A stretch of DNA of 36,958 bases from a virus. The notes under the pieces were generated by a model. It saw only the letters and a program-made list of their open reading frames with translations. It was not told the DNA's origin and searched no databases. Positions 1 through 36,958 of the stretch are shown here, in pieces; the stretch's first letter is position 1; each line of letters begins with the position of its first letter. The translations under genes were made by a program, and so were the position numbers. The stretch lies in IMG/VR virus record IMGVR_UViG_3300009455_000001; one strand, 5' to 3'.

Positions 1-123
1 ACAACGGTTCGGCGCATGTATGCTGAAATTGCCTATAAGCAACTTCCACAAAGACTGCAATTTTTGCATACTGCGCCTGTTGTTTGCTGTTCTCCCGCAC
101 ATTCCTTAGTTTTCTGCGGCGCG
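1..123. repeat. Terminal direct repeat, copy 1 (identical to 36836-36958); contig closes on itself, unit genome 36,835 bp
   Basis: Read directly: acaacggttcggcgcatgta...ttttctgcggcgcg occurs at both window ends. Confidence 0.95.
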
Positions 124-8473: not shown

Positions 8474-8905
8474 TTACATTCTGTTTCTAGTGTAATAATT
8501 TCCGTATGCTGAATCTAAGTTCTGTCTATAGTCCTGAGCGTATTGCCCGCTTGAAATGTCATTGGAAAAGTCTTGTTGTTTTAACTGATCGTCACGCTGC
8601 TGTTGTTGCATTTTCATCTGGAGATCAAAACGCCTTTGATTTTCTCGCGCAGCTTCTTCTGTCGCTTTGTCTTGTTGATAAGCACCGTAAATATTGGCTA
8701 AAAGTCCAGCTCCCTGCATCGCTGCACCTGCTATCATTAGTGGCGGTGCTCCACTAGACATGGCTAAACCTCCAGCTTGGCTTAAAACAGATCCTGCCAT
8801 TCCATTGCCTGAGCTTTGTTGCATTGGAACAGTAGAAGGTTGAAACTTGTAACCCCCATACTCAGGGTTTGGCATGCTCTGTGGCAATTGTAGTCCGTGA
8901 TTCAT
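8474..8905 (-). CDS. Small virion protein with Gly/Ala-rich hydrophobic segment (membrane-inserting ejection-protein-like)
   Basis: 143 aa; GSVLSQAGGLAMSSGAPPLMIAGAAMQGAGLLANIYGA followed by a Gln-rich charged tail. Confidence 0.4.
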   Translation of the reverse strand: MNHGLQLPQSMPNPEYGGYKFQPSTVPMQQSSGNGMAGSVLSQAGGLAMSSGAPPLMIAGAAMQGAGLLANIYGAYQQDKATEEAARENQRRFDLQMKMQQQQRDDQLKQQDFSNDISSGQYAQDYRQNLDSAYGNYYTRNRM

Positions 8906-8914
8906 AAATTCCTC

Positions 8915-10201
8915 CTAGTCTGGGTCATATTCTTTAGTCATAGCTATTTCTACTTGATTGCCGTTTTCATCGTAGGCTAAAATTCCATCCCTTGCCCTGG
9001 TGTTTCCATACCAATTATTCCGTGTTGTGTGATAGGATGGGTTTGCAACCATATATTTTTTCCCATTATAATTTATAACATCACCAGTTTTTACATTTTT
9101 AGCGTATCCAGTATTAATTATCGTAACTGCTGGCATAGACTTAATCAAATCAGGTCTTGTGCTGTTCAATATCTTCCAGCTTGACGCATCGAAACCCTTT
9201 CCAGCCTGCGCCAATTGCTCTACTTGTTTATTAGTTTCGTTTTGTATGTTCTGAGCCCGATTGCCCTCGTTTACCGGATTAATTGCTGCCTCGTCTATCC
9301 GCCCAAGCCGATCTCTAGTTAATTTCGCTATTCTTGCATTATAATTCTCTATAGTCTCCCCTTGTCGTCGCGGAGTTATGTTGACAATCTCTTGCCATTG
9401 CGAAGCGAAAGACTGTTCGGCTGGGGTTGCGCCCCTGTAAGGCGCAGCTATCGCCCCTGTTGCGTCGAAGATTCCTGACGCGGTAGTAATGTCTTTACCT
9501 TGAGCTAAAAGAAGACGTAACTTATTCTGTATATTTGGTGGTTGTTGCGCTATAAAATCTCTCATATCTTGCTGTTTGTTTGTGTATGTTTTGTCATTTC
9601 TTGAATATTCGAGTGCGTCCGCAGCTTCTTCGTGTCCTCTCTCTCCTGTTGCTCGGCTATACATCTGATCGCCTATTCCTTGTGCTCGATTCATCGCATC
9701 AGTATAGTAGTTTCTCTGCATCTGTCGTACAGCGTTTGTGTCTTGCATATTCTGAGTTTCTGCGCCCGAAACAGCCATTTCAATAGCTCTATTGTACTCT
9801 GGGGTTCCTGGTTTAAATCCTGCTGCTGCTGCTGCTGCTTCGCCTGCCTGTTGACCTCTTGAAGTTCTAAGTGCAGTATCTCGTCCAGTTCTCTGCATCG
9901 CGGCTTCTACATCTGCAAACTTACCAGTTTTCAACCCTTGAATTGTTTGATTTTGATAAATGCTCTCCGCTTTGTTGAATGGGCCACGATCAAAGTCTTT
10001 CAAATTGTATCGTTTTACCCTTGGGTCTGGTGCTGGATCAAGATTTCGTACTTGTCCTGCAACAATATCGTCTTGAGCTTTTGCAGCTGCAATTCGTTCT
10101 TTCTCAAGTTCTTGAGGCGTTTTGACTGGAGCGGTGCCCCTTACTGTGTTCGATAATGCGTCTCCTACGGCTCTCGCTACTCGACTATACCATTTTGCCA
10201 T
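8915..10201 (-). CDS. Hypothetical virion protein (about 428 aa)
   Basis: ORF 8915-10213 (GTG); ATG at 10201 has a GGGGG RBS 5 nt upstream; late-operon position. Confidence 0.5.
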   Translation of the reverse strand: MAKWYSRVARAVGDALSNTVRGTAPVKTPQELEKERIAAAKAQDDIVAGQVRNLDPAPDPRVKRYNLKDFDRGPFNKAESIYQNQTIQGLKTGKFADVEAAMQRTGRDTALRTSRGQQAGEAAAAAAGFKPGTPEYNRAIEMAVSGAETQNMQDTNAVRQMQRNYYTDAMNRAQGIGDQMYSRATGERGHEEAADALEYSRNDKTYTNKQQDMRDFIAQQPPNIQNKLRLLLAQGKDITTASGIFDATGAIAAPYRGATPAEQSFASQWQEIVNITPRRQGETIENYNARIAKLTRDRLGRIDEAAINPVNEGNRAQNIQNETNKQVEQLAQAGKGFDASSWKILNSTRPDLIKSMPAVTIINTGYAKNVKTGDVINYNGKKYMVANPSYHTTRNNWYGNTRARDGILAYDENGNQVEIAMTKEYDPD

Positions 10202-10694
10202 TATTGCCCCCACTTTTTGCTATGCGTTGTTGCAAATCTCTTACCAGGCTGTAAAGCGCGGTGATTTGTTTACTTAAATCTGTTATGCTACCCTTTATTA
10301 TTCCAGCTAAACCGCTACCGCTTACAATAGTTGCGACTGAGGCTGTAAGTGTGTAAATTTCCGTTAAATTTAACTCAATATCGTTCCTAAAGTTTACCCT
10401 TGTGACTCCCGTAACTAAATCATTTACGGGGGCGACTGTCCCGATAAGGAATTCAGCGTAGCAAATAAACGTATAACTGCCATCGTTCCAAGCTGTTCTA
10501 TTCTCGGTGCCCTCGTACAAACCTTTTAGAGTTGTATTCTCTGTTAGTATTTGTGCTGCTTGCGTTGCTGTCAAGCTATTTTCAAAGGCTCCGTCTGAGG
10601 CTCTAAGTAAAGCTCCATCAGAATCTCTTCGCACAATACAGTACACAGTCTGGCCAGTGGCTGTAGTTGTAGTGAATTGTTTCGTTGTAGCCAT
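10185..10694 (-). CDS. Hypothetical virion protein with C-terminal coiled coil (fibre-like)
   Basis: 169-aa ORF; Thr-rich beta N-terminal half, LSKQITALYSLVRDLQQRIAK helix at the C-terminus. Confidence 0.4.
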   Translation of the reverse strand: MATTKQFTTTTATGQTVYCIVRRDSDGALLRASDGAFENSLTATQAAQILTENTTLKGLYEGTENRTAWNDGSYTFICYAEFLIGTVAPVNDLVTGVTRVNFRNDIELNLTEIYTLTASVATIVSGSGLAGIIKGSITDLSKQITALYSLVRDLQQRIAKSGGNNGKMV

Positions 10695-19352: not shown

Positions 19353-21416
19353 CTATTGGTTGGGATGCCCCACTAACTCAGACTGGGGAATTGTCTGGCT
19401 GGCTAATCCAGCTTGCTTGTTCATAAATTGTCGAATTAGCTCATCTTGGTCTGGCTGCGCCCCTCTTTGGGTGGGTGCTTGCTCCGCCTCTGTCTGCGCT
19501 ATTTGTTGAGCTTGCTGAGTCTGGTCAAGCTCTTGCTGTTGCTGCTCGTTCTGCATTTGCTGTTGTTTCTGCTGCTTTAGAACAGTTGACCATTCTTTTA
19601 CCTGAGTTTTGAAATCCTGACTTGCATCGTTTTGCTCTAGCCAATACATAGTTAGCATTGTTAGAAGAACGGGGTCTTGCGCAGCCGATCCCGATTGCAT
19701 TAAAGCCTGTACAATGTCAAGATTTTTCTTTCTAATACTTGGTGATTGGGTTGAGTCTTCGATCACAACGTCATAAGGCGCAGCGTTTATATCATTCCAT
19801 TTAATTATATTTCCAGTTTGATAGCCGTATTCATCCGTCTCCCATTGCTCTTTATTGATTGTAAGATAATCGTTCTTACCGTCTTTTGTGATACGGATAA
19901 CTTTTTCATCTGTGTAATATTGTCTCCAATAAGCGTAACGGAGCATAATTCGCATTTTCATGAACATCTTCCAGTTTGCGATTGCCTGTTGATGTTGCGT
20001 GTACGCTTGCTGCATCAATTGTTCTTGGAGTATTCCGCTTTGACCGCTTTGACTCATTCCTTTTAACGCTTTAGGAGCTGCGCTAAACTCTTCTTGAGCC
20101 ATCGCTGACATCTCAACTAGTTTGTTAACATCGCTATTAAGTGGTTGCCCTTTTGGAATTTCGAATAGCGCATCACCAGCTCGTCCAGCGTTTACGCGAA
20201 ATCTGCGATCGCCTTCTGAACCATATTTTTCGAATAATTTAGCATCGTTTTCCGATTTAAAAGCTGTTGGGTCGATTAAATAGCCTGGCGCACTTGAGCT
20301 ATGTTTGACGTTGTGATACCAATTAGATAACATTCCGTTGGTCATTTTGTTGGGTGCAATTTGGTCATCTGTGAAGCTGTTGATAGAACCATTGAAAGAT
20401 TCCGCTATAAATTCCAAGACTGGGAAAATTAATTGTCCTTCGTCTGGGAAATCTGCATCGGTCATTCTTGGCTGGCAATGATATTCCCCGTTGACGGCAA
20501 ATTCAGTTTGTGACCAATAGGGGATGAGAACAGCCTGAAACAATTTTTCTACCGTTCTACTTTTTGTAGGTTTCTTGTGTTTCTGTTTGTATTCGTTCGC
20601 TTGTTCTTCGTTTTCAAAATCTACCCGTCCCTCATCGGAAACAGCGAATCGTTCGGTAACTCGCTTTTTGTAAAAGCGTTCAATTACCTTAAAAGTGCCG
20701 TCTTGCTCGTCCTTTGTTTCGTGGTCTCGATCTGTTTTTTTGTTTGTTGTCGATTGATAGTTACTTTCTTCTCTGTTCAAAGCGTATAAAGTCTCGTGCA
20801 AGTCTTCTTTATCTGGAAACATTTCGGCTATTTGGTCTGCCGTTAACCACCAGACAACGTCTACAAATGTTGCATCGTCTCTGATGATATAGTGCCTGGA
20901 ACTGGGATCCCAGTACACTTGAAGCGGACTCAGATTGTCAGTCCGCATTCGATAACGCCCGTCTTCGAATGTCTGCATATAGCAAATTTGACAAGCTCTT
21001 CCTGCGCCCCATCCTGTTTGAAACGTATCGATGTCTCGATATTGATCGTTTTGTTGATTGGAATTCCAGACGTTCAACGATTCCAAAACATCAGAAAGTG
21101 GTTGATCCTCTGGTTGGAAAGGAGCGAATTTCCCTGCGTATTTGTTTTGAATAAACAGTCCTACGGCGGTTCTGAGGGCTGGGCGAACATAGTTATAAAC
21201 GATTGGGGCTTTATTTTTTTTGCGGAAAAGCTCTTTTTCTTCTGCTGTCCATTGGTCACCGCCAATAAAATTTACTGCGGTTACAAAACGGTCGTTATCC
21301 TTTCCCCACCATTGAACAGCATGCTCGTGGGATTCGTGCATTTTTTGCGCCGAATCCATCCAGCTAGAGCCTTTTTGCATAATGTAAATATGCATTTTGC
21401 AAAATGAAAAAGTCAA
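19353..21416 (-). CDS. Portal protein (P22-like, Gln-rich C-terminal extension)
   Basis: 687-aa ORF downstream of terminase; C-terminal QQKQQQMQNEQQQQELDQTQQAQQIAQ helix reminiscent of the P22 portal barrel. Start uncertain (TTG 21416, ATG 21395/21380/21359). Confidence 0.7.
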   Translation of the reverse strand: MTFSFCKMHIYIMQKGSSWMDSAQKMHESHEHAVQWWGKDNDRFVTAVNFIGGDQWTAEEKELFRKKNKAPIVYNYVRPALRTAVGLFIQNKYAGKFAPFQPEDQPLSDVLESLNVWNSNQQNDQYRDIDTFQTGWGAGRACQICYMQTFEDGRYRMRTDNLSPLQVYWDPSSRHYIIRDDATFVDVVWWLTADQIAEMFPDKEDLHETLYALNREESNYQSTTNKKTDRDHETKDEQDGTFKVIERFYKKRVTERFAVSDEGRVDFENEEQANEYKQKHKKPTKSRTVEKLFQAVLIPYWSQTEFAVNGEYHCQPRMTDADFPDEGQLIFPVLEFIAESFNGSINSFTDDQIAPNKMTNGMLSNWYHNVKHSSSAPGYLIDPTAFKSENDAKLFEKYGSEGDRRFRVNAGRAGDALFEIPKGQPLNSDVNKLVEMSAMAQEEFSAAPKALKGMSQSGQSGILQEQLMQQAYTQHQQAIANWKMFMKMRIMLRYAYWRQYYTDEKVIRITKDGKNDYLTINKEQWETDEYGYQTGNIIKWNDINAAPYDVVIEDSTQSPSIRKKNLDIVQALMQSGSAAQDPVLLTMLTMYWLEQNDASQDFKTQVKEWSTVLKQQKQQQMQNEQQQQELDQTQQAQQIAQTEAEQAPTQRGAQPDQDELIRQFMNKQAGLASQTIPQSELVGHPNQ

Positions 21417-21446: not shown

Positions 21447-22490
21447 CTATTTAAAGATTTTTTCCTTTGCAATTTGCGAAAACACAGCGTACTGAGTGCC
21501 ATACTTATTAACTGTTGGCCCAGTTAAAACATACTGCGAAAGTAGTTTTATGTCGTTCCAGAGCATTCCAAGTTTAAATTTAGCATCAGGATGTGTGCTT
21601 TCCCTGTAAAGCTCGCTCGCTGTCTCTGTTTTTCCAAGAGCCTCGAACGCCATTCCTAAGTAGTAGTTTGCAGCGTTTAAATCATCTTTTTGAACATCAA
21701 AGCAGAGGCACGCATATAGCCATTTTAACGATTCGTTTGGCTTGCCGTCCATTAATTCCATACGTCCTAAAGCCATGCAATCGGTTGGGTTCAGCCCAAT
21801 CTTTTCAAGCGATTGAAGTAAAAGGTCTTTATTCCTGACTCTTTTAAACGCTACTTTGTCTGGGTCGTCGTAGCCATAGTGGACAATCTTCGCTCCCACA
21901 ATGTTTGCCGTTTCCCCTGGGGAAATTATCTGCTCGTGGACGCATCGTTCCCACTTCGCATACGGTTTATATAGTCTAACTTGCAGAAATGTCTCTCCTG
22001 CGTGGTTATTCTCAACCTCTAGAGCAATTTTGTCTATTTTCCCATCTTTATCTTGCTCTTCTACTTTTTGGATGTATCGCTTCAATCCTTTTTGCAGTTT
22101 TTCCGAGCAAATATCGTCTGAGTCTACCCACAAAAGCCATTCTGCGTCTATGTTCGTTTCTGTAAGTCGCTCTAAACAAGTGTTTCGTGCCCACGCAAAG
22201 TTCTGGAAAATACCTTTAAAGACGTCAATATTACCGTTGCTATAGGTCTTTACTTTCTCGAAGTTTTCTGCTGATCCGTTAAACGAAATTACGATCAAGT
22301 CGCAAAATGTGAGGCTGTCTATTGTTGCCTTTAAACTTTCTACTCCTTCGTCCCCGCAAATAATCGTAGCAACCAGGTCATGAGTTTTTTTACCCATTGC
22401 ATTGCTAATTTTTCTGACTGCGTCCCCAATAACGGGGTCTCGTCCCATTGGAAGCCGCAAACTGGACATAGCCTCTTGATCAATTCGCAT
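21447..22490 (-). CDS. Family-2 glycosyltransferase with C-terminal TPR-like repeats
   Basis: VATIICGDEG...SFNGS Rossmann-like N-terminus, WVDSDD (DxD) motif, C-terminal YYLGMAFEALGKTETASELY TPR-like helices. Start may be ATG 22397. Confidence 0.65.
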   Translation of the reverse strand: MRIDQEAMSSLRLPMGRDPVIGDAVRKISNAMGKKTHDLVATIICGDEGVESLKATIDSLTFCDLIVISFNGSAENFEKVKTYSNGNIDVFKGIFQNFAWARNTCLERLTETNIDAEWLLWVDSDDICSEKLQKGLKRYIQKVEEQDKDGKIDKIALEVENNHAGETFLQVRLYKPYAKWERCVHEQIISPGETANIVGAKIVHYGYDDPDKVAFKRVRNKDLLLQSLEKIGLNPTDCMALGRMELMDGKPNESLKWLYACLCFDVQKDDLNAANYYLGMAFEALGKTETASELYRESTHPDAKFKLGMLWNDIKLLSQYVLTGPTVNKYGTQYAVFSQIAKEKIFK

Positions 22491-33067: not shown

Positions 33068-33376
33068 TCAAACGCTGGACATGTGCCCGTAGGGCGAGTG
33101 CTTTGTATACCTGCGCCAAGCAACTTCTATGAAGGCGAGTGGCCTACCTTTTTCACAAGAAGTACCATCTTTTTCGATAACAAAATCAAGGTCGTGTGAA
33201 TTACCGTATTTGTCAATCCATGAAACTTTCTTCCCTTCTCTCGCACTGCCTCGGTTTCCTTTTGAATCAAGATAGTAGTGGTGTTTTCTGCAAAACTCCG
33301 ATAGAATCGGTTTTACAATTTCTTCCAATAAATTACCGATGACCTGTCCGAAAAGATGTGACGGTGATTCTGCCAT
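33068..33376 (-). pseudogene. Truncated restriction-endonuclease-like ORF, partner of the upstream methyltransferase
   Basis: Starts 3 nt after the MTase stop. HDLDFVIEKD...AFIEVAWRRYTKH is PD-(D/E)XK-like. Only 102 aa, ends at TGA 33068-33070 and is in frame with ORF 32813-33055. Confidence 0.4.
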
Positions 33377-33379
33377 TAA

Positions 33380-34708
33380 TCATCCCCTAATCCAAAGTCG
33401 CCCTTCTTGTAAAGGAACTCGGTGTTTGCGGTTTTTCCATTTTATATTTCTATCTCTTATTTTATCAAAGTCGCAGGAAATAAATCCCGCATTAATGGCA
33501 AGGGCTGAAAACCATTTATCCGCTGGTGCATAGATTCCGTATGGTGCGGAATCGTCAATCACAAAACACATTAATGAATCTTTTTTCATGATTTTTCGCA
33601 ATGCAATGAATGTTTTGGCGATATCCAAATAATATGCTGCAATCATGGTGTGGTAAGTTTTTTTGCCACCTTTTGACAATCTAATTATGGAGAGTTCCTC
33701 ACATACAGAAGACAGTTCAGGTTTAATGGGGTCTATTTCTGGGGAGTTAAGTAGATTGTCAAGCGTAAGTCTTTCAGCCGCTGAATGTTGTGAACACGAA
33801 CGAATCAAATATTTACGGATTTTATCCTGCAAGCCAGCCCATCCATTGAGTTCTCCCCAAAAGAGAAGTTCAAGACGTGTTGCATCAGCATAATCATAAT
33901 TATTGGGGTAAGGTGGTGATGTGATTAATGCGTCAAATTCATAGCTTCCGAATGGTAATATTTCGCGTGCATCATGCTTAAGCAGAGTTGAATGGGTGTG
34001 GACAAACGAAGATTGAGCACAAAGCATGTCTTCTGACATTTGGTTAACTTTTAATGAAAATGCATCGAAAGCGTCAATGACATTACTCTTGGGTTTATTT
34101 GGTAAGATATATTGCCATTGGGCTGTTCCGGCTGTACTTGTGATTCTTAGGATACTTGTTATTGCAAGCCACAAAAGTTCAAATTCTGGAGAATCGTCAT
34201 TGTACTTAAAAAATGCGTCACGAAGAGATTCTAATTTTGATAAATTCTCAAGAGTATAGCATTTGGAAAGTAGTGGGACCGCTTTTAATTTGGATTCAAC
34301 AGGATTCTTTTTGGCAAAATTGAGAAGTTTTATTGACAATTTGCAGAATAAATCAATATTGGCATTCCAGCGGAGTTTCGCAGTGGCGATTCTACTTACA
34401 AACGGATGCGATTCAAAACCAACGGAATTAATGCCAAGGGCGTCAGCACATACCAATACTGTTCCTGAACCAGCAAAAGGGTCGAGAACATAGCAAGAAC
34501 TGTTTAATTTCATTCGCCGCAAAGTTCTTTCAACCCATTCTGCCGAAAATCCTGCTGAATAACGATACCAACGATGAATTGGCAATTTCATATTGTCGGT
34601 AAAAGTGCCTTCGCGCTCTCTAACCAACTCGGGGGCCTCATTTTTGGTTTCGTCGGGTAAAAGCAAAGGCAAAGTTGTCTGGTATGCTACGCTCAAAAGT
34701 ATCTCCAA
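33380..34708 (-). CDS. Type II DNA methyltransferase (N6-adenine or N4-cytosine), motif I before motif IV
   Basis: 442 aa; DPFAGSGT (AdoMet motif I) then, about 190 aa later, TSPPYPNNYDY (motif IV). TTG start at 34708, first ATG at 34591. Confidence 0.8.
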   Translation of the reverse strand: MEILLSVAYQTTLPLLLPDETKNEAPELVREREGTFTDNMKLPIHRWYRYSAGFSAEWVERTLRRMKLNSSCYVLDPFAGSGTVLVCADALGINSVGFESHPFVSRIATAKLRWNANIDLFCKLSIKLLNFAKKNPVESKLKAVPLLSKCYTLENLSKLESLRDAFFKYNDDSPEFELLWLAITSILRITSTAGTAQWQYILPNKPKSNVIDAFDAFSLKVNQMSEDMLCAQSSFVHTHSTLLKHDAREILPFGSYEFDALITSPPYPNNYDYADATRLELLFWGELNGWAGLQDKIRKYLIRSCSQHSAAERLTLDNLLNSPEIDPIKPELSSVCEELSIIRLSKGGKKTYHTMIAAYYLDIAKTFIALRKIMKKDSLMCFVIDDSAPYGIYAPADKWFSALAINAGFISCDFDKIRDRNIKWKNRKHRVPLQEGRLWIRG

Positions 34709-34818
34709 GTCGTTGATTTTTATAGCCTATTACTCATTTCAGCAAATATGCTTCATAAAATACCTAATTGAACGGGTAAAATCCTCATACTATTTTACAC
34801 CGCCGCCTCTTTGTTTTG

Positions 34819-35048
34819 AACGGGGGCTGTCTTCGTCTTTTTCATGCTCTTTTCTTTCTCCCCGCCGCCGACTATAATCCATTCTTGCCCGGTTTATTGC
34901 GCCTAACGTCGTGGCCAACAGTTGATCGTGCGGCTTTGCGCATGTCAACTTTGGCCTGTTGTTTGTCTGTATGTAAAGCACCTACTACAGCTACTGTTCT
35001 TCGGCGGCGGTTTTTTTGTATTTCTTCCCTGGCATTCCAGCCCCCGTT
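34819..35048. repeat. 230-bp nested palindromic element with perfect 11-bp terminal inverted repeats (MITE-like), copy A
   Basis: AACGGGGGCTG 34819-34829 / CAGCCCCCGTT 35038-35048; CCGCCGCCG 34862-34870 / CGGCGGCGG 35002-35010 followed by T7; central hairpin 34913-34956. Confidence 0.8.
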
Positions 35049-35068
35049 TCGCCTTTTTTTATGCAGTT

Positions 35069-35803
35069 TTATTTGGTTGAGGAATTAAATATTACAAGGC
35101 TATTCCAATCAATACGACCACTATCGTCACAAAAAGTATTTGCAAATTCTTTTGTGAATTTATTAATCATTTGTGAGTATGACTCAAGAAAAGCTTCATT
35201 TTTTTCTTTTGCTTTATAACCAAGCGGTTCAATGATCTCAGTGTATAATGTGGAATTACCAGAAATAAATTCCCAAAATTTCTACCCACAATATTTAAAG
35301 TACTCACCTTTGTCTGGCTTATTATCACGACCATAACAACAACCATTTACTGCAAAAATATTTAATTGTGAATTACTAGTCCTAAGAGCCTTTTTTGCTG
35401 TCTTAAAGTCACTTTTCATTTTAGCTATTTGGGAGCTGTTCCCCCAATTTGGTCCAGACTTAATTGTTACAATATTCCTTACTTTATCATTATCGAATTC
35501 AAGGTCAATACCAGTAATTCCAGATTTCCGCCCCCCAAACACTTTCCCATTAATAAAAATCGAAAGGCCTTCAAGCCAATCCCCAAAAATGCCCTCTTCA
35601 CTGGATGAAATATGAGCGTCAACCAAACTTTTAATGATTTGCTCAGCAGTAAGAACATATTTGGCTTTAAACAAGTATGGATTTTTTCGTTTTAGAACCT
35701 GTTTTAATTTTAAACCGTCAAGGCTTTGAATCCTTTTTTTATGAAAAGTTCCGATATTTTCTTCAACGTACAGCGTAACGTCTTTTAGGTTTAGGTTTTT
35801 CAT
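35069..35803 (-). pseudogene. Eco47II/PmeII-like type II restriction endonuclease interrupted by an in-frame TAG (35282-35284)
   Basis: RKNPYLFKAK, SSSEEGIFGDWLEGL, GIDLEF and IKSGPNWGNSSQ motifs. After the TAG the same frame stays open for 70 codons (KFWEFISGNSTLYTEIIEPLG...) to TAA 35069-35071. Confidence 0.6.
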
Positions 35804-36641
35804 ATTTTCCTTTTGGTTCGAGAAGGTAGAGTTCCACTGGTGGTAATTGACTTTTAACAATATCATAGTAATCTTTGACAATGTCTATACCTATTGAGTT
35901 ACGGCGCATTCTATTTGCTACAACCAAAGTTGTTCCTGAACCCATAAAGGGGTCTAAAACGATATCGTTTTCTTTGGTAAACAACTTAATAAACCATTCA
36001 GGAAGTTCTGCAGGAAACGCTGCACTATGGTTTTTATTGCTACATTCAGTAGCTAAATGAAGAACATTTGCTGGGTATGCTTTATCTCTTGCCAGCCAAT
36101 TTGAAATGTTTTTACCAAACCCACTCCCAACTTTGGAGTTATCGCGTGTTTTATCTGTTTCGCTCAGATTTTTTAAACGAGTTTTTGCCCAATCTCCCAT
36201 GGGTACCATGACATTTTCTTGGTACATATTAAAACTTTTTGATTTATTGAACTGAAGGAGACGTTCCCAAGCATCACGGAATCTATTTGGCCATTTTCCT
36301 GGGTAGCAGTTTTTTTTATGCCAGATGAATTCTTCTGTCCAAAGCCACCCTTGTTTTCGCATTTCTAAAATTAATTCCATGACATAAGTACTACGCTCAC
36401 CGTTCACTACCTTTTCTTTTATGTTTAAAATGAATGTGCCACTTGGCTTTAAAACACGAAGTAACTGCTGTGTTATTGGAAGAAACCATGAGACATAGCT
36501 ATCTGGATGTATTCCTCCATAAGTCCCTTTTCTTTGGTCTGCATAAGGTGGTGAAGTAACTATTAGGTCTACAGAATCAGTAGGAATTTTAAGAAGCTCT
36601 ACCTTGCTGTCTCCCAAATAAATATCTGTTTTAATTTCCAT
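35763..36641 (-). CDS. Type II DNA methyltransferase, beta-class amino-MTase (motif IV before motif I)
   Basis: 292 aa; TSPPYADQRK near the N-terminus, DPFMGSGTT near the C-terminus; GAAGG RBS; 3' end overlaps the endonuclease start. Confidence 0.85.
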   Translation of the reverse strand: MEIKTDIYLGDSKVELLKIPTDSVDLIVTSPPYADQRKGTYGGIHPDSYVSWFLPITQQLLRVLKPSGTFILNIKEKVVNGERSTYVMELILEMRKQGWLWTEEFIWHKKNCYPGKWPNRFRDAWERLLQFNKSKSFNMYQENVMVPMGDWAKTRLKNLSETDKTRDNSKVGSGFGKNISNWLARDKAYPANVLHLATECSNKNHSAAFPAELPEWFIKLFTKENDIVLDPFMGSGTTLVVANRMRRNSIGIDIVKDYYDIVKSQLPPVELYLLEPKGKYEKPKPKRRYAVR

Positions 36642-36667
36642 TTTAGCCTTCTATTGCTTAAGCCTTT

Positions 36668-36733
36668 AAACGAATAAATTTACTCTAAAAATAACTATTA
36701 GACACACATGAAACTTGTTATTTTTATTCGTTT
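36668..36733. promoter_or_regulatory. Perfect 11-bp inverted repeat AAACGAATAAA / TTTATTCGTTT upstream of the methyltransferase gene (candidate operator or 5' UTR hairpin)
   Basis: 36668-36678 and 36723-36733, read directly; 27-92 nt upstream of ATG 36641. Confidence 0.4.
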
Positions 36734-36747
36734 GACTCTTTCCTTTT

Positions 36748-36958
36748 AACGGGGGCTGTCTTCCATTTTTCTATTGTTTTTTTCTTCTGTCTTTCCGCCG
36801 CCGCCTACAATTTCCTTGTGCTTTACATATTGCAAACAACGGTTCGGCGCATGTATGCTGAAATTGCCTATAAGCAACTTCCACAAAGACTGCAATTTTT
36901 GCATACTGCGCCTGTTGTTTGCTGTTCTCCCGCACATTCCTTAGTTTTCTGCGGCGCG
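36748..36958. repeat. Copy B of the GC-clamped palindromic element (continues to about nt 131 after wrap-around)
   Basis: AACGGGGGCTGTCTTC 36748-36763 shared with copy A. CCGCCGCCGCC 36795-36805 pairs with GCGGCGCGG (116-124). Core hairpin 36832-36867 / 36892-36922. Confidence 0.75.
36836..36958. repeat. Terminal direct repeat, copy 2 (identical to 1-123)
   Basis: Read directly. Confidence 0.95.

Follow-up and report, generated by a model that had tools for sequence, protein, structure and literature searches.

Restriction endonuclease genes disabled beside an active methylase, as well as lone methylases in phages, are well known, and the phage locus described here is a new example of this known process, not of a new mechanism. 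Many chromosomal R-M systems of Helicobacter pylori presumably belong here, with an endonuclease inactivated by a nonsense or frameshift mutation beside an active methylase. For phages, a survey of 831 genomes by Oliveira et al. counted nine R-M systems and 143 solitary methylases, the former thus being almost lacking and the latter enriched; its authors argued that degradation on the spot is seldom the source of solitary methylases, so that in-place decay may be a minority route to them (PMC4176335). On the side of the nucleases, the closest described enzymes are those of the PmeII family and EcoO109I (Pfam PF14511; structures 1WTD/1WTE). GGWCC is the recognition site of PmeII, the prototype of the family, and in P. 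mendocina, from which PmeII comes, GGWCC carries an m5C modification (bioRxiv 10.1101/2021.02.10.430591). The dimerization region of AvaII is largely helical and intertwined, and in EcoO109I the C-terminal side and the dimer interface are more elaborate (PMC7337904).

The stretch of DNA analysed here (36,958 nt, in the following called the window) is a complete phage genome of ~36.8 kb (36,835 bp), circular or terminally redundant. Its completeness follows from an exact terminal direct repeat of 123 nt (window 1-123 equals 36836-36958) and from permuted contigs (L007 and L008), which connect both window ends. The gene set is that of a tailed phage, with terminase, portal, major head protein, primase/helicase, Gam-like protein, exonuclease, NinG, sigma factor and M15 peptidase. 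Relatives sought via the phage exonuclease comprised 80 IMG/VR loci, all with at most 59% protein identity, and R1, R2 and M2 (see below) were found in none of them; Rfam gave no match anywhere in the window at gathering thresholds. The methylase gene M1 and the nuclease gene R1 form a cassette with the following features:

34956..36845, minus strand: M1-R1 cassette with some flank, a block of 1.9 kb (blastn against L001-L006)
35763..36641, minus strand: M1, intact cognate N6_N4-class DNA methyltransferase, 292 aa, SPPY motif (PF01555, E = 4e-46)
35069..35803, minus strand: R1, probable pseudogene of a PmeII-family / EcoO109I-like type II restriction endonuclease (translation; PF14511 across the stop; 99% identity to the intact homologue P0001)
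35285..35803, minus strand: ORF still translatable, 173 aa, predicted to hold the N-terminal helices and the PD-(D/E)XK core sheet (translation; AF2 model of the intact homologue)
35282..35284, minus strand: premature amber codon, codon 174 (all intact relatives examined have CAG)
35069..35281, minus strand: stranded C-terminal 70 codons and the original TAA (translation, alignment, model, shuffles)

The reading we prefer, to which we would assign a probability of about 80%, is that the phage carries an R-M cassette obtained from Fibrobacter not long ago, in which a young nonsense mutation has made R1 a pseudogene, and that the loss of R1 has left a functional lone methylase. The M1-R1 cassette would have passed from Fibrobacter bacteria into the phage genome, and after this transfer a C-to-T transition would have turned Gln codon 174 of R1 from CAG into TAG. 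Translation would now end after the last core strand, giving a product without five C-terminal helices, which presumably is unable to cut DNA, while M1, left untouched, presumably still methylates the phage genome and may thereby protect the phage from hosts with the same R-M system. Seen in this way, the locus would be an R-M system at an early stage of decay, with a lone (orphan) phage methylase as the outcome. An intact methylase beside a disabled nuclease gene in a phage genome is what it shares with the phage solitary methylases, for which a route from complete R-M systems has been proposed; the remnant of R1, however, is fully recognisable, with one nonsense codon and no other damage, and the decay would therefore have been caught at its first step. 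With the R-M systems of H. pylori it has in common the point-mutated endonuclease gene and the retained methylase, but those systems are chromosomal and this one resides in a phage genome; moreover, a simple-sequence repeat is absent at the TAG site of R1, which therefore is not a case of phase variation.

Translation of the minus strand confirms the frame, which had been described in a reading made from the sequence alone (hereafter, the sequence-only reading): it starts with ATG at 35803, continues for 173 sense codons to TAG at 35284-35282 and then, without a further stop, for 70 sense codons to TAA at 35071-35069, altogether 244 codon positions with one in-frame TAG. The same reading held that a read-through product of ~244 aa has the size typical of the family and that such an open extension is notable in AT-rich DNA. 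Both points stand, as the best 120 of thousands of homologues are 239-290 aa long and cover 96-100% of the 244-aa product, and as only 34 of 20,000 shuffles of the 210-nt extension past the TAG stay open. The other two frames of this 210-nt segment contain 2 and 13 stops, and the open 70-codon extension therefore is not a chance product of AT-rich DNA. Internal initiation past the TAG cannot rescue the conserved residues F176 and W177, because the first canonical start past the TAG is codon 212.

The read-through protein matches the Pfam family PF14511 (RE_EcoO109I) with E = 4e-92 and 307.8 bits (curated cut-off 22.5), in an alignment that covers positions 2-198 of the 198 profile positions and residues 8-202 of the protein and thus spans the TAG. 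The earlier label 'Eco47II/PmeII-like' has to be divided: its PmeII half is upheld by PF14511 and by the names of the homologues, several among the best 120 being called 'PmeII family type II restriction endonuclease' by NCBI, whereas its Eco47II half is unsupported, with no Pfam family besides PF14511 at E <= 0.01. No HMM of NCBIfam matches R1 or R2. The search for R1 homologues covered 5.8 billion proteins and returned thousands of relatives, the closest intact one (P0001, 244 aa, from a Fibrobacter sp. MAG) being 99% identical to the read-through R1; when cluster representatives were searched, full-length members at identities down to ~32% aligned to residue ~242. Homologues ending at the TAG, which would have spoken against an interrupted gene, are thus not what is seen: they span this position and carry Gln (CAG) there.

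In a diverse alignment of 64 family sequences (31-96% identity), position 174 is occupied by Gln, Lys, Glu, Arg or Ser, with Gln in 55 of the 64 members; the 13 close homologues have Gln throughout (13/13), and TAG at codon 174 occurs in none of the homologues examined. F176 and W177 are invariant (64/64) and make up two of only four invariant columns, and W233, also invariant, lies within the stranded C-terminal 70 codons. Conservation of these 70 residues is on a par with that of the N-terminal 173, the mean majority fraction being 0.48 and 0.50, respectively. Compared with the PmeII / EcoO109I-like enzymes, R1 thus shares the full-length profile match and the methylase gene just upstream, but differs by a frame broken at codon 174: an uninterrupted ORF of ~240-250 aa is absent, and the GQxFW motif and the C-terminal helices are cut off by the TAG.

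The sequence similarity of R1 to EcoO109I itself is below HMMER detection; phmmer and A1 profile searches of PDB sequences gave no EcoO109I match, and the link required structure prediction. An AF2 model from a shallow alignment (>=79% identity) reached a pLDDT of 42 and was discarded, while the second model, calculated for the intact 99%-identical homologue with the diverse alignment of 64 sequences, reached a pLDDT of 94.3. Its only significant PDB matches in Foldseek are EcoO109I with and without DNA (1WTE, 1WTD; full length, TM 0.65-0.71, best match 0.71, probability 1.0), and an EcoO109I-like PD-(D/E)XK fold is accordingly predicted for the intact homologue. The strands of the core sheet comprise residues 101-105, 108-115, 148-155 and 169-172 of the model. 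The TAG directly follows the last of these strands and deletes the helices 174-181, 186-189, 191-195, 198-224 and 233-241, so that five C-terminal helices, or 29% of the protein, are missing and the 173-aa product retains the complete catalytic core. By analogy, the lost helices probably are needed for the helical dimer architecture. Because F176, W177 and W233 are invariant, and because of the dimer-interface analogy with EcoO109I and AvaII, we infer from conservation and predicted fold that the 173-aa product cannot form an active dimer or cut DNA.

Regarding the origin of the cassette, the M1-R1 block shows 95.9-96.0% DNA identity to six contigs (L001-L006) over 1681-1898 nt (blastn); these contigs encode P0001, and one of the six comes from a Fibrobacter MAG. 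Because its DNA is ~96% identical to Fibrobacter contigs, we infer that the cassette came from Fibrobacter bacteria and was recently transferred, which would link this uncultured phage to a Fibrobacter host. Codon 174 is CAG in all eight intact DNA copies examined (L001-L006, L136 and L137). Together with the preceding codon, the sequence is GGT CAG in L001-L006, GGG CAG in L136 and L137, the next-closest copies, and GGG TAG in the window; one C>T transition therefore suffices, and judging from these copies it is how the stop arose. In comparison to L001, R1 contains 19 synonymous and 2 missense differences in addition to the stop; of these, 5 lie past the stop, and all 5 are synonymous. The divergence of ~4% would therefore almost entirely have accrued while the whole of R1 was under purifying selection, and with only synonymous differences past the stop the nonsense mutation appears to be young. 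Of the two options offered by the sequence-only reading, a very recent nonsense mutation or suppression-dependent expression, the former is supported by these differences and by the CAG of the homologues. For work on how R-M systems turn over on mobile elements, the locus is a useful example that can be dated.

M1 had been called intact, and rightly so: its 292 aa equal the length in the Fibrobacter contigs (L001-L005, with 5 missense and 19-20 synonymous differences), and the match to PF01555 extends over positions 1-220 of the 221 profile positions. The 3' end of M1 overlaps the start of R1 by 41 nt. An SPPY motif, as present in M1, is typical of N4-cytosine methyltransferases. Directly downstream of the M1-R1 cassette, the genome contains a second cassette (33068-34708) with the following genes:

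33380..34708, minus strand: M2, second N6_N4-class methyltransferase, intact, 442 aa, SPPY motif (Pfam; homologue lengths)
33068..33376, minus strand: R2', remnant of a small putative nuclease, 102-aa ORF (homologues; tblastn)

Most of the M2 homologues listed are 437-442 aa long, and the closest cover 99-100% of the query. Genes for R2' homologues lie immediately after N6_N4 methylase genes. These homologues are up to 165-179 aa long and match only 92% of the 102-aa ORF: similarity is lost past residue 94 (window 33095), no frame encodes the ~70-85 C-terminal residues that the homologues have, and tblastn with four full-length R2' homologues found nothing credible in the window beyond residue 94. 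A single in-frame TGA in R2', followed by 84 open codons, was considered as a parallel to R1 and rejected, as homology already ends at residue 94 and the frame downstream of the stop is without similarity. The closest M2 homologue on a long contig (L135 8001-9329; 85% identity, 442 aa) is followed by no R2-like gene, and M2-type methylases therefore also occur alone elsewhere; after this homologue, a Cas3-HD gene lies on the opposite strand of L135.

Neither methylase of the window thus has an intact nuclease gene as neighbour, M1 being followed by R1 with its nonsense codon and M2 by the truncated R2'. Comparable cases are found in another phage lineage. Only two IMG/VR viral contigs (L009 and L010) contain a PmeII-family gene, and in both (L009 6001-6604, L010 6001-6700) an intact 292-aa methylase is followed by a PmeII-family nuclease, which loses homology past residue ~162; L010 further shows a frameshift around residue 126 of the nuclease, and its methylase has an IS605 OrfB/TnpB gene as neighbour. 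Both phages have an SPP1-type portal as well as a tyrosine integrase and belong to a lineage unrelated to the phage of the window. The truncated R2' and the decayed nucleases of L009 and L010 lend support to the earlier proposal that the phage keeps methylation while cleavage is silenced. The genome would thus display two cassettes at different stages of decay, one with a fresh nonsense codon in R1 and an older cassette, whose putative nuclease already is truncated, and with them in-place R-M decay, a route held to seldom yield lone methylases (PMC4176335).

How TAG is read in this genome bears on two of the alternative explanations. With the standard code, ORFs of 100 or more codons take up 91% of the coding strand, and the gain in ORF coverage is smaller when TAG is taken as sense than when TGA or TAA is. 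Seven ORFs of 98 aa or more end in TAG, portal and primase/helicase among them, which in PHROG alignments appear as normal, separate proteins (for the portal, the profile is covered to position 624 of 681), and ORFs of 900, 881 and 687 aa are free of in-frame TAG. The sequence-only reading had counted at least eight other well-formed genes ending in TAG; with seven ORFs of at least 98 aa the point holds. ARAGORN detected no tRNA gene (0) in the complete genome. Two of the TAG-terminated ORFs on the minus strand are followed in frame by another ORF: a glycosyltransferase-like ORF of 347 aa (21447-22490) by the portal (19353-21416), and an ORF of 432 aa (8915-10213) by one of 143 aa (8474-8905). 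The first pair looks like a chance coincidence of frames and not like read-through, because the PHROG alignment of the portal begins at the portal's own N-terminus.

In some crAss-like and other recoded phages, TAG is predicted to be read as Gln, and R1 shares with them an in-frame TAG where its homologues have Gln. However, here one gene is affected, TAG serves as a normal terminator elsewhere, as seen from the seven ORFs, the long TAG-free ORFs and the coverage of 91%, and a suppressor tRNA gene is absent, so that genome-wide recoding, already judged unlikely from the sequence alone, can be regarded as excluded for practical purposes. Leaky or suppressor-dependent read-through, by which a trickle of full-length nuclease would be made, or nuclease would be made in suppressor hosts only, is in line with the fact that the 70 codons downstream of the TAG are fully open and without missense change, and the ancestral residue is Gln, which near-cognate or suppressor tRNAs insert at UAG more often than any other residue. 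An intact downstream frame is, however, equally expected for a young pseudogene, and programmed read-through differs from R1 in that the stop is not conserved among the relatives and no stimulatory structure is predicted (no stable RNA structure around or downstream of the R1 TAG; MFE z = -0.34 versus shuffles). To our knowledge, the context TAG AAA TTT is not a recognised read-through motif. An efficient suppressor would furthermore extend the 347-aa ORF into the in-frame portal gene, and lengthen the primase/helicase by 67 codons and the 432-aa ORF by 146. The search for a tRNA gene, which the sequence-only reading had proposed for an amber suppressor, came out empty for the phage genome, and suppression-dependent expression is very unlikely: the analysis yielded neither a tRNA gene nor an RNA structure past the stop nor any homologue with TAG at codon 174.

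A sequencing or assembly error or a minority variant, with CAG and an intact R1 in the real population, would explain a single-base difference in a metagenome-assembled genome. Two other assemblies contain the same truncated protein and are 100% identical to the window over 20.5 kb, but they probably sample the same population and then are no independent confirmation; all three TAG records, being mutually identical, may derive from one data set. On the other hand, two assemblers gave the same base (Logan contigs and a k141 assembly), no other sign of poor quality is seen, the remaining differences to L001 being the 19 synonymous and 2 missense ones, and loss of the nuclease is plausible in itself, as a decayed nuclease beside an intact methylase recurs in the neighbouring cassette and in L009 and L010. 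We therefore consider such an error improbable. It is still less probable that the 173-aa protein is kept for a new job, be it as dominant-negative partner of a host nuclease, with which it would form inactive heterodimers, or as a DNA-binding protein. The fragment still has its start codon, overlaps the stop of M1 and contains all of the PD-(D/E)XK core, and Fibrobacter strains carry a 99%-identical full-length enzyme; yet the helices probably needed for dimerisation are just the missing part, a conserved short form is not found (the shorter entries among the cluster representatives match scattered segments and resemble fragments), and the mutation is too young for any selection signature. 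That the amber allele is not junk, with the 173-aa fragment poisoning the host's 99%-identical enzyme or read-through of UAG as Gln providing a tiny, delayed dose of nuclease, is accordingly a long shot; if true, the dominant-negative fragment would represent a new kind of anti-restriction.

Returning to the reading of R1 as a young pseudogene beside a retained methylase, the composition of the genome offers a further hint. Site counts in the whole window were compared with a second-order Markov expectation, and both GGWCC (10 observed, 36.5 expected, z = -4.3) and GGNCC (25 versus 65.5, z = -4.7) are depleted. The depletion of GGWCC agrees with earlier restriction at such sites and with an advantage of retaining M1, with the site borrowed from the prototype; in the PmeII system, however, the partner of the nuclease is an m5C methylase, whereas M1 is of the N6_N4 class, and GGWCC is the site of the prototype only. 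Further deviations concern CCGG (7 observed, 48 expected, z = -6.6), CGCG (56 versus 97) and GATC (68 versus 106), which are depleted as well, and GANTC (150 versus 116.5), which is enriched.

Both methylase genes of the window, although unrelated to each other, are preceded by a GC-rich element of ~110-250 nt, of which the window holds two copies:

34790..35047, minus strand: copy A, between R1 and M2 (blocks GTTGTTTG..TATGTAAAGCAC, CGGCGGCGG, CAGCCCCCGTT)
36700..36958, minus strand: copy B, upstream of M1, running into the 123-nt terminal repeat (wraps to 1-123)

The conserved blocks of the element are GTTGTTTG..TATGTAAAGCAC, CGGCGGCGG and CAGCCCCCGTT; their inverted order recurs just after R1, copy A showing the blocks in inverted and then in direct orientation. 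The element also lies upstream of the M1 homologues in L004, L005 and L136 and of the M2 homologue in L135, and its coordinates outside the window are 1-247 in L004, 3970-4162 in L136, 7800-7948 in L135 and 115-275 in L138. A pattern of 35 nt from the element was found in no viral contig (0) and at two loci in metagenome contigs, and a 16-mer scan of genome contigs for the repeat core gave only chance matches across many unrelated taxa. RNA folding of the element results in z-scores of -3.3 and -2.95, with no match in Rfam, and a scan for promoters and terminators around both cassettes gave counts no better than in shuffles. L138, a chromosomal contig on which a valyl-tRNA synthetase gene is found, has the element without the cassette; there, the opposite strand of the element provides the ATG and signal-peptide-like start of a 426-aa repeat protein; the corresponding ATG is ACG in both copies of the window. 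Candidates for what the element represents are a site of recombination, a promoter or leader, and the remnant of a gene.

On its left side, the mobile M1-R1 cassette follows the 10-mer TATTTTTAGA in two genomic contexts (window 36693, L002 ~117-135, L138 ~115-125), while no matching duplication is found at the right end (window ~34956). This common junction, together with the lack of a duplication at the right end, suggests that the cassette may have inserted in a target-specific manner without target-site duplication. The candidate L138 for the empty site of the cassette is partly supported, as the sequence of the left junction matches and the right flank does not. In L136, a gene for an IS200-type Y1 transposase is located ~750 nt upstream of the element.
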